Source: Nonlabens sp. (GTDB lineage: Bacteria > Bacteroidota > Bacteroidia > Flavobacteriales > Flavobacteriaceae). Taken from it: a stretch of DNA of 64,000 nt. Below the pieces are notes generated by a model. It saw only the letters and a list, made by a program, of their open reading frames with translations, did not search any database and had not been told where the DNA came from. Positions 19,804-64,000 of the stretch are shown here, piece by piece (the first letter of the stretch is position 1; every line of letters begins with the position of its first letter). Location of the stretch: the NCBI RefSeq assembly GCF_051251825.1, contig NZ_JBPOGG010000012.1, positions 2,539 through 66,538 on the forward strand, in the 5' to 3' direction. Made by a program: the position numbers and the translations under genes.

Positions 19804-22482
19804 TTACTTTTTTATAAATTGTTTTGAAGCTACCGCTCCATTAGTTGTTGTGATTTGAAGTATATACATTCCTGCGCTTAAGTCAGCAACATTAATTGTT
19901 GATTCTTGAGATGCTGCGATTAGTTGACCTTGTAGGTTGTAGATATCCGCTTTCGCGAAAGCGTGATTCTCAACAGCCACAGTAATTACATCACTTGCTG
20001 GATTAGGATATAGCTTTACTTGCGGTAAGTCTGCATCATTATTGCTAGCTGTGGAGAGCGAGCTATAAGCACCTACATCAAAGCCATTGTTATTTCTTGC
20101 TAGGCCAAAATAATCAACGGTAGGCACATCGTCCGTATAAACTTGATTTGAATTTCCAGCTGCATTTGAGGAGTTTGTGATACGGTAATCACTGGCTGCG
20201 GCATTTATAAATCCTGGAAGACCTGACTGCGTATTAAAGGCAGATGATGATAAATTTGAGAAATCATCTTCATCATAATTATTCTGAATCAAAAGATTTC
20301 TATTTCCACCTGCAAAACTAACGACAGGCGTAGATACAGCGCTATTAGAAGCAGTTTGTAAATTATCATAGAAAATTGAATTAGTTACTTGGAATTCAGT
20401 ATTTCCACTTTGTTTAGATACATGCAAATGCGCGTATCTACCCGTTCCAGCATGGACTCCATTATTACCTGCGATGGTGCAATTTTTCAAAGTAAAATCT
20501 GATTGTACTGGAGTTCCCGTGGCTTGATTACGTATCCATACTATTCCTGCTGGATTGTTATTAGTGTCTGTTCTTCCAGTGATGTTGTTTTCAAAACTAC
20601 ATCCTAGTAATTCTACCTTATGAGTTCTTCTTGAAGTATCTGAATAAAATCCGCCAGCAAACCAGGACCTGTTATTTCTAAAAATGCAGTTAGAAATTAC
20701 ATTAGTTCCATTATCTATTCCTGTGATATCATAAACTCTTATTCCAGCTCCAGCACGTTGTGCCGTGTTATTTTCTATAATACAATTTCTTACTTTAGTG
20801 TCTAATGCTATGATAAGTCCGGCTCCTTCTTGAAGTCCTTGTGCGCTATCAAACGCGTGACCACCAGAGATAGTAAATCCATCAATTTCTACTCCAGGGC
20901 CTCTTGCAATTAATACTCGTTTTGCGTTATCTGTTTTGGTAGCTGCGGTCGCGCTGAATTCTAAAAGGTTATTGTCATCATCATTTCTGTCACCACTTAA
21001 GGTTGTTGTGTTTAAGAGATAATCTCTTTCATCAAGGAAATTCTCTGTTGTGTCAAACCCACCGTACATTTTTGTATTTGTGAATATTTGATAGGATGGT
21101 GTAGTTGCTGGAATGGTATAATCACCTTGTGCAACCCATATAAAGTTTCCAGAACCTAGATTGAGAGCAGTATCAAGGTCTGTATATGCATCTTGCCAAC
21201 TAGTACCATCATTATTTCCCGATGCATTAATGTCAACAAATACGCCTATAGAAAGATTAACTTGTGTTGCATCACTTTCTACAGCACCTCTATCGATCAC
21301 AGCTGCTTTAATTCTATCTTCACCACTTCTTGTTTTTAAAGGAAATGAGGATGCATAAAGTCCGTTTTCACCAGTATTTACTGCTGGAGAACTATTTAAT
21401 GGTTTATAGTCGCCTGTAATATTATTTGTGAATAATGGATCAGTAGTTATAGTGTTGTTGACAGTAGTAGTGGCATTAGGATTGATATTTGAAAAGTCAT
21501 CTTCGTCTATATTGTTATTAACATCTATAGAAGCAGATCCACCACTTTGAATATGGAATACTTTATATCCAGCACCATTATTCCAGAAAATGTTATTATC
21601 AAATCTAAATACACCGGTAGCAGATGTTGCAGCAAGCTGAACTAAGGCTAAGGTTCCAGAATTGTTATTAAAAGTATTATCGGCCATTGTGCTGTTCACA
21701 ATTCGTATGTTGTTAGTTCCAGTTGTAGGTCTTAACCATATTAAACCACCAAAGCCTGAGACACCACTAAAATTTGTGTTCTCGTTATTTGTTACCTGAA
21801 CATTCACCATTAATAACGAGACATCATCTCTGGTGGAATAAAATGTATTTGCAAAAGATGCTAGGTTATTACGGAAGATGGTATTTTCGATGATTGCGGT
21901 TGCACCACTTTGAGGTCCACCTATATTTACAGTTCCTCCACGAGCGGCTATGTTTTCTTCAAAAATACAATTACGAATTTGTGTGTCTTTTTGCATAATA
22001 AAGGCTGATCCTTCTCGATCACTATTTGATGATCCTATTGCAGTGCCGCCTTTAAATGTTAATCCATCTACTATAACACCAGATCCGCCTACTTGAGCAA
22101 TTTTATAGGCATTATCAATTTTAGTTGCATTAGAATAATCTAGAGTTCCAGCGTCGTTGTTCAATAAGTCACCACTCAAGGTTGTAACGTTCACATTGAA
22201 ATCTCGCTGACTGAGAGATGACTCAGTGCCATTAAATCCACCATAAAGTTGTGTGTTTGCGTTTAGGATAAATCTGGATGTTACTGAAGACCCTGGAATA
22301 TAATCTCCAGCTGCAATCCAGAAAGTACTACCTGAATGGTTAGTGAGCGCTACATTTAAATCAGTATATGCATTTGTCCAGCTAGTACCGTCATTTGCTC
22401 CTGTAGCGCTAGCATCTACAAAGATTTGTGCACTTGAAAACAAGCTAAAGAGGAATGTGATAATGAGTAATAATTTTTTCAT
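19804..22482 (-). CDS. T9SS type-A cargo protein with two tandem parallel beta-helix-like modules
   Basis: Signal peptide SSAQ; repeated FVD..A.G.NDGTSW..AYTDL; N-rich beta-helix pattern; CTD LYPNPA...YNLQGQL...GMYILQI...KQFIKK. Confidence 0.85.
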   Translation of the reverse strand: MKKLLLIITFLFSLFSSAQIFVDASATGANDGTSWTNAYTDLNVALTNHSGSTFWIAAGDYIPGSSVTSRFILNANTQLYGGFNGTESSLSQRDFNVNVTTLSGDLLNNDAGTLDYSNATKIDNAYKIAQVGGSGVIVDGLTFKGGTAIGSSNSDREGSAFIMQKDTQIRNCIFEENIAARGGTVNIGGPQSGATAIIENTIFRNNLASFANTFYSTRDDVSLLMVNVQVTNNENTNFSGVSGFGGLIWLRPTTGTNNIRIVNSTMADNTFNNNSGTLALVQLAATSATGVFRFDNNIFWNNGAGYKVFHIQSGGSASIDVNNNIDEDDFSNINPNATTTVNNTITTDPLFTNNITGDYKPLNSSPAVNTGENGLYASSFPLKTRSGEDRIKAAVIDRGAVESDATQVNLSIGVFVDINASGNNDGTSWQDAYTDLDTALNLGSGNFIWVAQGDYTIPATTPSYQIFTNTKMYGGFDTTENFLDERDYLLNTTTLSGDRNDDDNNLLEFSATAATKTDNAKRVLIARGPGVEIDGFTISGGHAFDSAQGLQEGAGLIIALDTKVRNCIIENNTAQRAGAGIRVYDITGIDNGTNVISNCIFRNNRSWFAGGFYSDTSRRTHKVELLGCSFENNITGRTDTNNNPAGIVWIRNQATGTPVQSDFTLKNCTIAGNNGVHAGTGRYAHLHVSKQSGNTEFQVTNSIFYDNLQTASNSAVSTPVVSFAGGNRNLLIQNNYDEDDFSNLSSSAFNTQSGLPGFINAAASDYRITNSSNAAGNSNQVYTDDVPTVDYFGLARNNNGFDVGAYSSLSTASNNDADLPQVKLYPNPASDVITVAVENHAFAKADIYNLQGQLIAASQESTINVADLSAGMYILQITTTNGAVASKQFIKK
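19948..19963. repeat. 16-bp palindrome copy 6 (perfect), in T9SS CTD (HAFAKAD)
   Basis: ATC-CGCTTTCGCGAAAGCG-TG. Confidence 0.95.
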
Positions 22483-22551
22483 GATTGATTAAGTTTAATT
22501 AATATTTACAAGAACAAATTTGTAGTATTAATTGCCTCAAAATCAATTTGC

Positions 22552-22580
22552 TTTCTGAATCGCAGTTTGGGTTGCTGAAA
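22552..22580 (-). promoter_or_regulatory. Candidate LytTR direct-repeat site
   Basis: Minus strand TTCAGCAA-N12-TTCAGAAA (CTGAA at 22555 and 22575), weaker third copy near 22536. Confidence 0.35.
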
Positions 22581-22586
22581 TGTCTT

Positions 22587-22676
22587 TTAGTCTGTTAGTC
22601 TGTTAGTTTGTTAGTTGCGGATTGCATCCGTTTAGTCTGTTAGTTGCGGATTACATCCTCTTAGTAGGTTAGTTTT
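22587..22676 (+). repeat. Left arm: TTAGTnnn octamer array with two TTAGTTGCGGATTRCATCC units
   Basis: TAGT at 22588, 22596, 22604, 22612, 22633, 22641, 22662, 22670. Confidence 0.9.
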
Positions 22677-62149: not shown

Positions 62150-62166
62150 GTTTTTAAGTCAATCGA

Positions 62167-63558
62167 CTATAAATGTATCACCTCACCATAAGCATCGGCA
62201 ACGGCTTCCATAACCGCTTCACTCATTGTAGGATGTGGATGGATCGCTTTTAAAACTTCGTGACCAGTAGTTTCTAGTTTACGACCTAGAACAGCCTCAG
62301 CAATCATGTCAGTCACTCCAGCACCTATCATGTGACAACCTAGCCACTCGCCATACTTAGCGTCAAAGATTACTTTTACAAATCCATCTTTTGCACCACT
62401 AGCACTTGCTTTTCCAGATGCAGAGAACGGAAATTTACCTACTTTGATATCATAACCAGCTTCTTTAGCTTGAGCTTCAGTCATACCTACGCTCGCAATT
62501 TCTGGAGTAGAGTATGTACAACCTGGTATGTTTCCATAATCAAGTGGCTCCACATGCATGTCTGCTATTTTTTCTACACAAAGAATTCCTTCGGCACTGG
62601 CAACGTGCGCTAGTGCTGGACCAGCAGTGATATCACCTATCGCATAATAACCTGGAATGTTAGTCTGGTACCAGTCATTAACTAATACTTTACCACGATC
62701 TGTAGAAATTCCTACTTCTTCTAGACCTATTCCAGCGATGTTGGTTTCGATTCCTACGGCACTTAAAACGATATCAGCCTCAAGAACTTCTTCTCCTTTT
62801 TTAGTTTTTACCGTTGCTTTCACACCACTTCCTGAAGTATCTACACCAGTCACCTCACTAGAAGTCATGACCTTAATACCTGATTTCTTAAAGCTACGCT
62901 CCATTTGTTTAGAAACATCTACATCTTCTACAGGAACGATACGGTCTAGATATTCTACTATAGTAACCTCAGTTCCCATAGAGTTATAGAAATAAGCAAA
63001 CTCAACACCTATCGCACCAGATCCTACGATGATCATTTTCTTAGGTTGCTTCTCCAGCGTCATCGCTTGACGGTAACCTATTACTTTCTTACCATCTTGT
63101 GGTAAACTAGGTAAGCTGCGAGATTTTGCACCAGTTGCTATAATAATATGTGTTCCTTCAACAGTTGAGGTAGAACCATCTTCAGCTTTTACCTCAATTT
63201 TCTTTCCTTTTTTAACGGTACCGTAACCCATGATTACGTCTATCTTATTCTTCTTTAATAAGAATTGAACACCTTTACTCATACCGTCAGCAACGTCACG
63301 AGAGCGTTTTACAACGGCATTAAAATCTTTATCTACACCAGTAACTTTAAGACCGTAATCTTCGGCATGGTTGAGGTAATTGAATACATCAGCACTTTTT
63401 ATAAGTGCTTTTGTAGGGATACAACCCCAATTCAAACATACTCCACCTAGAGATTCCTTCTCTACAATCGCAGTTTTCAAACCTAATTGAGACGCGCGTA
63501 TTGCAGTTACATATCCACCAGGTCCACTACCTAAAACGATTACATCATATTTACTCAT
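62167..63558 (-). CDS. lpdA: Dihydrolipoyl dehydrogenase
   Basis: [31 protein letters not shown]; start MSKYD; TATTTTTG (minus) at 63581-63588. Confidence 0.95.
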
Positions 63559-63633
63559 ATCTGTCAATTTTTAAGAGTCACAAAAATATGGAATAAAGTC
63601 CATAGGATTGTAAATTTGCACAACCTTATTCTT

Positions 63634-64000
63634 ATGTATAAATCAATAATTCGTCCATTACTTTTTGCCTTTGATCCAGAGGCAGTTCACCATTTTTCTT
63701 TCAAGAGTATTAAATTATTGAGCAAGTTGCCTGGTTTTAGTACGCTTTCGCGAAAGCGTTACAAACAAAATCATCCTTCCTTAAAAAGAGAACTCTTCGG
63801 ACTCACATTTGAGAATCCTGTGGGAATGGCTGCTGGATTTGATAAAGATGCCAAAGCATTTAAAGAATTTTCAAATCTAGGTTTTGGATTTATAGAAATA
63901 GGAACACTCACTCCAAAGCCGCAAGATGGAAATCCTAAGCAACGATTGTTTAGATTAAAGAAAGATCAAGCGATTGTAAATAGAATGGGATTTAATAATG
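63634..64000 (+). CDS. pyrD: Quinone-dependent dihydroorotate dehydrogenase, partial (runs off right edge)
   Basis: Not in ORF track. [20 protein letters not shown]...[11 protein letters not shown]...[26 protein letters not shown]...VNRMGFNN; TAAATTTG at 63611-63618. Confidence 0.92.
63743..63758. repeat. 16-bp palindrome copy 15 (perfect), in pyrD (TLSRKR)
   Basis: TA-CGCTTTCGCGAAAGCG-TT. Confidence 0.95.

Follow-up and report, generated by a model that had tools for sequence, protein, structure and literature searches.

The 64,000-nt stretch of the draft genome of a marine flavobacterium, Nonlabens sp., analysed here (the window, C4:2539-66538) carries repeated copies of a perfect 14-bp palindrome, GCTTTCGCGAAAGC, that occurs 583 times in the genome as a whole (G000). 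With a probability of roughly 80%, we regard this palindrome as a lineage-specific, highly iterated DNA word that forms in place by nucleotide substitution, is maintained at the level of DNA and obeys a spacing rule; a Chi-like or uptake-like role may be supposed for it. Substitution in place, maintenance at the DNA level and the spacing rule are themselves well supported.

Abundance and form of the word

The draft genome is 3.30 Mb in size with a G+C content of 36% and a completeness of 98.5%, and our own calls based on open reading frames (ORFs) give 2818 genes that cover 91% of it, with approximate start codons. In synteny it comes nearest to Flavobacteria bacterium BBFL7 and N. ulvanivorans PLR. 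Among all 12-, 14- and 16-mers of the genome, the word and its sub-words rank first; the reversed control word occurs 0 times, and 0 copies of the word arise in a Markov simulation. The window holds 14 exact copies, one copy with a single mismatch (40923) and a two-mismatch relic (34757), against 0.10 matches in shuffled sequence. The palindrome extends to the 16-mer CGCTTTCGCGAAAGCG in 451 of the 583 genome copies and is surrounded by an outer consensus, ATTAC-...-GTAAT. No repeat longer than ~24 bp is found around the copies. The mismatch spectrum falls steeply, from 583 exact copies to 100 with one mismatch and 55 with two (background 13-19, an excess of about 40 copies), beyond which only background is seen. 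The T5 to C variant (equivalent to A10 to G) accounts for 58 of the 100 one-mismatch copies, that in rlmD included, and C6 to T for 11. As in the highly iterated palindrome 1 (HIP1) of cyanobacteria, the over-representation amounts to orders of magnitude and embraces coding and non-coding DNA: 351 copies (60%) lie inside coding sequences (CDSs), at 0.12 per kb of gene, whereas spacers of all types carry 0.6-0.95 per kb. In the searchable literature the 14-mer appears in no paper, Nonlabens is linked to palindromes only via clustered regularly interspaced short palindromic repeats (CRISPR), and no link of Flavobacteria to iterated palindromes was found; one named Dokdonia locus contains a copy.

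Codon usage at coding copies

The 351 coding copies are read as three peptides, namely AFAKA (210 copies), RFRES (72) and LSRK (69). AFAKA occurs 224 times in the proteome, compared with ~1 occurrence predicted by amino-acid composition and 0-2 for each scrambled peptide, and 210 of these 224 (94%) are written with the motif codons GCT-TTC-GCG-AAA-GCN, for which codon usage predicts 0.85%. The motif codons also encode 75 of 98 FRES and 69 of 100 LSRK peptides, the prediction from codon usage ranging across peptides from 0.03 to 1%. Selection at the protein level is refuted by this codon usage. In 49 of the 210 AFAKA copies the peptide forms the C-region and cleavage site of a signal peptide (e.g. 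MKK...LSFAFAKA, cleaved before Q), which fits with the extended signal being translated as a hydrophobic stretch, AFAKA and a polar stretch.

Copies in the window

The copies in the window are as follows, with the strand given for each gene.

45-58, exact; AFAKA at residues 17-21, the signal-peptide cleavage region, of the left-edge CDS (minus, start at 106); in frame, (106-58) mod 3 = 0
4401-4414, exact; spacer between CDS 3231-4331 (plus) and CDS 4436-5374 (plus)
7001-7014, exact; divergent spacer between CDS 6369-6860 (minus) and CDS 7048-8457 (plus)
14297-14310, exact; spacer 3' of CDS 11803-14205 (plus), distinct from the terminator hairpin of that gene at 14228-14253
19645-19658, exact; spacer between CDS 19177-19617 (minus) and CDS 19804-22482 (minus)
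19949-19962, exact; AFAKA in the Por_Secre_tail domain (type IX secretion system, T9SS, C-terminal sorting) of CDS 19804-22482 (minus); in frame, (22482-19962) mod 3 = 0
24668-24681, exact; RFRES in the histidine kinase CDS 23981-26902 (minus); exact in 3 of 3 available orthologues
27019-27032, exact; spacer between CDS 23981-26902 (minus) and CDS 27040-27465 (minus)
31226-31239, exact; LSRKR in the Kdo/WaaP-family kinase CDS 30591-31352 (plus)
34757-34770, two-mismatch relic GTTTTCGCGCAAGC; heptosyltransferase CDS 33915-34979 (minus)
36117-36130, exact; AFAKA in RuvX, CDS 35898-36317 (plus)
40923-40936, one mismatch (GCTTCCGCGAAAGC on the plus strand); AFAEA in the RlmD-like methyltransferase CDS 40103-41530 (minus)
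46486-46499, exact; AFAKA in CDS 46324-46959 (plus)
50808-50821, exact; AFAKA in the TonB-dependent receptor CDS 49082-51571 (minus); exact in 9 of 10 species, C6 to T in the tenth
57055-57068, exact; 26 nt upstream of the start of CDS 56082-57029 (minus)
63744-63757, exact; LSRKR in PyrD, CDS start 63616 (plus); exact in 9 of 9 congeners

An earlier note on this window had described the 14-mer as free of stop codons in every frame, as it is, and had read it as AFAKA (T9SS domain, RuvX, the 46324-46959 protein, TonB receptor and left-edge CDS), AFAEA (RlmD-like protein), RFRES (histidine kinase) and LSRKR (lipopolysaccharide kinase and PyrD), all of which are the correct frames. Its count of nine coding copies among 15 also holds (eight exact copies out of 14 and the variant in rlmD), and becomes 10 of 16 with the heptosyltransferase relic. 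The word is more than a 14-mer, however: the skewed flanks of ~30 nt and the strict spacing rule set out below were not seen in that note. The 46324-46959 protein, which it had labelled 'Smr', has no Pfam match at E <= 0.001, so that this label is unconfirmed.

The 4401 copy stands at the orthologous spacer position in 11 of 11 species (T5 to C in two) within an otherwise diverged spacer, and the 7001 copy is exact in G045 and has one mismatch in G002, with the length of the site unchanged. The 46486 copy is exact in 8 of 11 species and T5 to C in three, and the 57055 copy has an exact counterpart in orthologous position in 8 of 10, with one mismatch in G020 and G045. At the 31226 site the word (ACGCTTTCGCGAAAGCGT) is found in four close species and with two mismatches in G020 (ACTCTTTCGCGGAAGCGT), whereas six more distant species have the non-motif sequence TTACTTTCTAAGCAAGAT of equal length and without a gap. 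The column of the 34757 relic holds the exact word in five of six species of the other Nonlabens clade and one mismatch in the sixth (G016), which marks the window copy as a decayed one. The 40923 variant occupies the slot of the array between the 36117 and 46486 copies.

Two blocks of the window, 7048-14205 and 19804-27465, are variable among the syntenic regions of ten congeners: the former occurs in G002 and G045 alone, the latter being mostly missing. Spacer copies of the motif border both blocks, at 7001 and 14297 and at 19645 and 27019, respectively. The T9SS-domain gene (CDS 19804-22482) is without an orthologue in the syntenic regions compared. The 19645 and 19949 copies are 304 bp apart, one of only five among 529 genome intervals below 1 kb. 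No Rfam family matches the motif; the sole match in the window is a 6S-Flavo RNA (RF01685, 100.5 bits) at 54056-54167 (plus), between CDS 53688-54002 and CDS 54127-55788.

Formation by substitution

Syntenic regions of 64-76 kb from ten other Nonlabens species were compared with the window by codon alignment, and the comparison was extended to 400 kb from each of G016 and G045, whose median protein identity is 76% and 87%, respectively; outgroup alignments comprised 12-70 motif-free genera per protein. In RuvX, GCTTTCGCGAAAGC is matched by AAGTACACAGTTCA of equal length in congeners without the word, and the site is free of gaps against six such congeners and 11 outgroup genera without the motif. 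Equal lengths in word-bearing and word-less species are also seen in CDS 15598-15957 and the heptosyltransferase gene. The LSRKR site of PyrD is occupied by LFRKx, IFRSL or similar peptides of equal length in ~70 outgroup genera, HAFA(K/E)A of RlmD aligns with outgroup KxFAxK without a gap, and the 46324-46959 protein is likewise gap-free at its site against motif-free outgroup genera. On the larger scale, 71 of the 129 coding sites compared in G016 and G045 are shared exactly, and 46 of the 56 internal non-shared sites have no gap within the 14-mer. Spacer copies, too, are either kept in place or altered by substitution.

These alignments show that genic copies form in place by nucleotide substitution and not by insertion of a mobile element; as with uptake sequences, they occupy tolerant positions without insertions or deletions (indels). 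Formation takes place where the protein tolerates AFAKA, RFRES or LSRK, often around a Phe or Phe-Ala codon that is already there or at the hydrophobic-polar junction of a signal peptide. The gap-free alignments thereby support the proposal of the earlier note that the motif overwrites tolerant codons instead of being inserted, which speaks against simple transposition, with a minority of sites showing indels. Two checks had been set beforehand, and both favour the proposal: no gap was found at the sites in RuvX, RlmD, PyrD and the 46324-46959 protein or at most non-shared sites, and AFAKA is not encoded by varied synonymous codons, which argues against selection at the protein level. The further claim, that DNA-level drive shapes protein sequence, stands as regards the DNA level, on the strength of codon usage; drive and selection are indistinguishable with these data.

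Conservation and independent origin

Between species, 52% (G016) and 58% (G045) of motif sites are identical, compared with 3.0% and 7.6%, respectively, of random coding 14-mers, a conservation at orthologous positions that, as in HIP1, goes beyond codon or peptide selection. Copies, once formed, are held letter-perfect at the DNA level, synonymous positions included. When one genome from each of 300 Flavobacteriaceae genera was searched, hundreds of copies were found only in Nonlabens, G293 (409) and G313 (797), and by eight neighbouring proteins the latter two are no nearer to Nonlabens than other genera are. In RuvX, where the word is missing from one Nonlabens clade, G293 and G313 carry it at the same place but displaced by 1 nt, which gives RFRES and keeps the conserved Phe codon (TTT/TTC) inside the word, and in PyrD they have it at the same spot with a shift of 2 nt. 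The use of the same spots in other frames points to repeated formation in place where the protein is tolerant, and is hard to explain otherwise.

Outside these lineages, a heavy-metal efflux island of 25-35 kb (P-type ATPase, CusAB/Czc-type resistance-nodulation-division pump) was met at loci L283-L293 in G146, G322, G160, G183 (twice) and G308. It has 74-94% DNA identity across these five otherwise motif-free genera and is related to G000 C47:48803-57704. Its copies bear 2-5 motifs each, with a pair 933 bp apart in five of six, and the word probably marks the island, by its sequence, as DNA from a motif-rich lineage. A driver gene carried on clustered-motif islands of other genera was considered and rejected, the island being one of heavy-metal efflux. 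No copy, even at two mismatches, is found in the 35.7 kb of the Nonlabens phage P12024S, where host density predicts ~6.6. The word is present in some 30 IMG/VR contigs, in a few of which the spacing resembles that of the host; several related 'viral' contigs (L176, L179, L180 and L192) have two or three copies at a host-like distance of exactly 4480 bp.

Spacing and flanks

Across 14 contigs longer than 50 kb (529 intervals) the mean interval between copies is 5.4 kb, with a coefficient of variation (CV) of 0.54 compared with 0.98 +/- 0.04 for random placement. Only five intervals are shorter than 1 kb (90 expected) and 24 shorter than 2 kb (164 expected), and the longest is 22 kb. One-mismatch copies lie as far from exact copies as exact copies lie from one another, and with them included the CV drops to 0.46 and gaps above 10 kb become half as many. 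The genome thus retains about one copy per 5 kb and almost never a second copy within 1-2 kb, and regular spacing is also seen in G016, G045, G313 and G293 (CV 0.53-0.78).

The 5' flank of each strand is C-poor and G+T-rich from 6 to 30 nt, with a GC skew of +0.3 to +0.7 that fades by 40-60 nt and is equal for coding and spacer copies. At third codon positions of the flanks C falls to 0.05 and G rises to 0.27 (baseline 0.14 for each) on either gene strand, which indicates a preference at the DNA level. A footprint of C to T deamination in single-stranded tails was rejected as the sole cause, as G is doubled and A lowered as well. Beyond the core, the two arms of a copy are no more complementary than shuffled partners, so that a longer hairpin with co-varying arms was rejected; an intrinsic terminator was rejected too, the 3' flank being A/C-rich and not T-rich. 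In a terminator scan of 1-20 kb, one of five copies was flagged, weakly, and the real terminators lay elsewhere.

Small elements at the centre of the word

A hairpin element of ~54 nt (TACCGCAnnnnGTGCGGCA) is found outside the window on G000 contig C11 at ~139859, 204418, 338901, 510291 and 534025. Each of the five consists of the half-word CGCTTTCG, the insert and a full word, and one lies in frame within a gene; judged by its sequence, it resembles a very small mobile element with the palindrome centre as its target. A 24-bp G+C-rich palindromic repeat, AACCTGCCTGCCGGCAGGCAGGTT, has ~12 copies in G000 outside the window (e.g. C11:445941, C1:534084 and C5:20591), of which one is a 21-nt in-frame insertion at the motif centre within a gene and two others adjoin partial motifs. 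Such insertions suggest that the word centre is a target for tiny elements, though most copies of the word are not insertions.

Search for a reader protein

Protein families were searched in seven motif-rich and nine motif-free genomes. None of the 16 has a pilus ATPase of the T2SSE (PF00437)/PilB type with a score above the family cut-off, and Y1 transposase (PF01797), as expected for a repetitive extragenic palindrome (REP)-associated tyrosine transposase (RAYT), has 0 matches in G000 and G293 and does not track the motif in its presence elsewhere. Each motif-rich genome has one ParB_N gene and no additional ParB/Noc paralogue. A C5 methyltransferase is missing from four of the seven motif-rich genomes (G016, G045, G293 and G313) and present in many motif-free ones. 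Both an AddAB-like gene pair and ComEC occur whether a genus is motif-rich or motif-free.

DISCUSSION

The nearest known systems appear to be HIP1 and the uptake sequences, and the likeness to Chi is one of functional analogy only. HIP1 (GCGATCGC) is likewise a hugely over-represented palindrome found in spacers and, in all frames, in genes; it is under selection, is conserved beyond codon or peptide selection and is non-randomly distributed along the chromosome, and its function was long obscure (PMC5861425, PMC4390886, PMC13756078). It differs in being 8 bp long and occurring up to once per kb, compared with 14-16 bp and once per 5.4 kb here, and in a periodicity of 18-94 kb instead of a tight spacing of neighbours. 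HIP1 is recognised by the cognate orphan methyltransferases DmtA and DmtC. The Nonlabens word does not track a C5 methyltransferase, has strand-skewed flanks of 30 nt and belongs to Bacteroidota, in 3 of 300 genera of the family. The uptake signal sequences (USS) of Pasteurellaceae and DNA uptake sequences (DUS) of Neisseriaceae share with the word point substitution at tolerant codons without indels, skewed peptide frequencies, a strong core with weaker flanks, restriction to a lineage and rarity in foreign DNA (PMC2817400). Unlike them, the Nonlabens word is a perfect palindrome, is about five times sparser and forms no terminator-like inverted pairs; AFAKA is raised ~200-fold, compared with a 2-fold rise there, and no type IV pilus ATPase is found in the 16 genomes searched. 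REPs and bacterial interspersed mosaic elements (BIMEs) with their RAYTs also comprise hundreds of palindromic copies per genome and are enriched in spacers. REPs are, however, imperfect extragenic hairpins of 20-40 nt spread by a Y1 transposase, whereas 60% of the Nonlabens copies are genic without change of length, their arms do not co-vary and G000 is without a Y1 transposase.

Chi of Escherichia coli has a density of about one per 5 kb, like the Nonlabens word, and a G+T-rich 5' side is expected for a RecA-loading tail, as is seen here. Like Chi, the word is a host 'self' signal that is missing from a lytic phage, and AddAB-like genes are present; Chi, in contrast, is asymmetric, 5-8 nt long, oriented with replication and not evenly spaced. 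We envisage that a two-fold symmetric factor would read the word in a strand-specific process needing one site per few kb. The best guess is a Chi-type 'self' signal of recombination or repair, by which the 3' single-stranded tail up to the word would be rich in G+T, and the next best a transformation signal of HIP1 or uptake type; the peptide changes would be a by-product. Carried further by analogy, and here with considerable doubt, the word might be recognised by a genome-maintenance system, as yet undescribed, in some Flavobacteriaceae, as a palindromic 'self' signal per ~5 kb for a two-fold symmetric factor acting strand-specifically on DNA ends or nicks. Such a factor could be a Chi-like, bidirectional regulator of resection with a G+T-rich loading tail, the patchy distribution would reflect gain or retuning of the reader, and the site might be cut or opened often enough to be targeted by hairpin elements.

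Several points weigh against these conclusions. Gaps overlap 18% of non-shared motif sites compared with 2.5% of random 14-nt windows, i.e. they are seven times commoner. Part of this excess is alignment slippage beside the word, and it also includes three true insertions into the word centre, two of 60-63 nt that each bring a new copy and one of 21 nt with another palindrome. A few copies came in insertions of 54-63 nt, so that insertion is not zero. Moreover, writing base by base and writing several bases at once cannot be told apart with species that are 13-25% distant in protein. As to a Chi-type function, the Chi sites known so far have a length of 5-8 nt and lack palindromic symmetry, and no precedent is known for a requirement of 14-16 nt. 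No reader protein was found, in that none of the families searched tracks the word, and the equal presence of AddAB-like genes and ComEC in motif-free genera ties the word to neither machine.

Of the other explanations, molecular drive by biased DNA uptake and recombination is a possible one. Word-bearing DNA would be imported preferentially, as with USS and DUS, and variants nearer to the word would spread by transformation without benefit to the cell; a second site on a favoured fragment would gain nothing, which would produce even spacing. The strong core with weaker extended flanks, the position of copies at tolerant, poorly conserved sites without indels, the very regular spacing, the lack of the word in a lytic phage and the presence of ComEC are consistent with this, as is the share of copies in ORFs (60%, compared with 35-65% for USS and DUS; PMC2817400), and HIP1 is now proposed to act in transformation (PMC13756078; bioRxiv 10.1101/2024.09.10.611283). 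The 16 genomes, however, have no T2SSE/PilB-type ATPase above the cut-off and so lack the uptake by pilus known from Neisseria and Haemophilus, motif-free genera have ComEC just as well, and known uptake sequences are non-palindromic and occur ~once per kb. No report of natural competence in Nonlabens was met, although no dedicated literature search was made.

It is unlikely that the word, under selection for its spacing, forms an array of sites for a protein that organises the chromosome, whether as loop anchors, as nucleoid-occlusion sites like those of Noc or SlmA, or as strong sites for topoisomerase. A perfect palindrome would suit a dimeric DNA binder, and regular spacing at ~5 kb recurs in five genomes of three genera. 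There is, however, a single ParB-family gene per genome with no extra Noc-like paralogue, and the TTTC/GAAA half-sites are 2 bp apart and not 4 bp, the figure for parS and Noc-binding sites (NBS). The G+T strand skew over 30 nt also points to a single-stranded or strand-specific process and not to duplex binding. In favour of such an array, the kilobase-scale periodicity of HIP1 has been taken to indicate that HIP1 contributes to chromosome architecture (PMC5861425).

Quite improbable is a mutational ratchet of the kind modelled by Elhai for HIP1, in which a methyltransferase and very-short-patch repair would 'repair' near-matches into a functionless word. The word does contain TCGCGA and CGCG, its commonest variants are transitions (T5 to C, 58; C6 to T, 11) and exact copies far exceed near ones, but C5 methyltransferase genes do not follow the motif, being missing from four of seven motif-rich genomes. 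A short-patch system that reads 4-6 bp, moreover, cannot yield 14-16 exact bases, skewed flanks of 30 nt and exclusion over 1-2 kb.

The chance that the copies, those in genes included, stem from a self-inserting miniature mobile element of the REP/RAYT or miniature inverted-repeat transposable element (MITE) type is very small, and for the bulk of copies this explanation is largely refuted. The ~54-nt hairpin element, five times on C11 in a split word with a new full word, an unrelated 63-nt insertion on C1 that brings a copy and the enrichment of gaps at non-shared sites would be in its favour. Length is nevertheless unchanged at 82% of non-shared coding sites, the frame at the same spot differs across genera, the flanks are without copy-specific hairpins, no repeat extends past ~24 bp, no Y1 (RAYT) transposase occurs in G000 or G293, and a regular spacing is impossible by insertion. 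Protein selection for AFAKA, RFRES and LSRK has virtually no chance of being the cause, for although AFAKA is a good signal-peptidase site and 49 copies serve as such, 94% of AFAKA peptides come from one codon set of 256, one DNA word yields three unrelated peptides, 40% of copies are non-coding and scrambled peptides occur at the level of chance.

The lineage-specific, DNA-maintained word favoured here extends the small class of genome-wide words (HIP1, USS, DUS and Chi) to Bacteroidota. It is unusual in being twice the length of HIP1, in its near-crystalline 5-kb spacing and in its strand-skewed flanks, features that constrain what its reader can be. A DNA-level signal here overrides protein coding in hundreds of genes: one 14-base word has raised a pentapeptide ~200-fold, fixed its choice of codons and supplied ~49 cleavage regions of signal peptides. 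The word is also a practical fingerprint for DNA of these lineages, and as such brings to light the transfer of a heavy-metal efflux island to at least five further genera.

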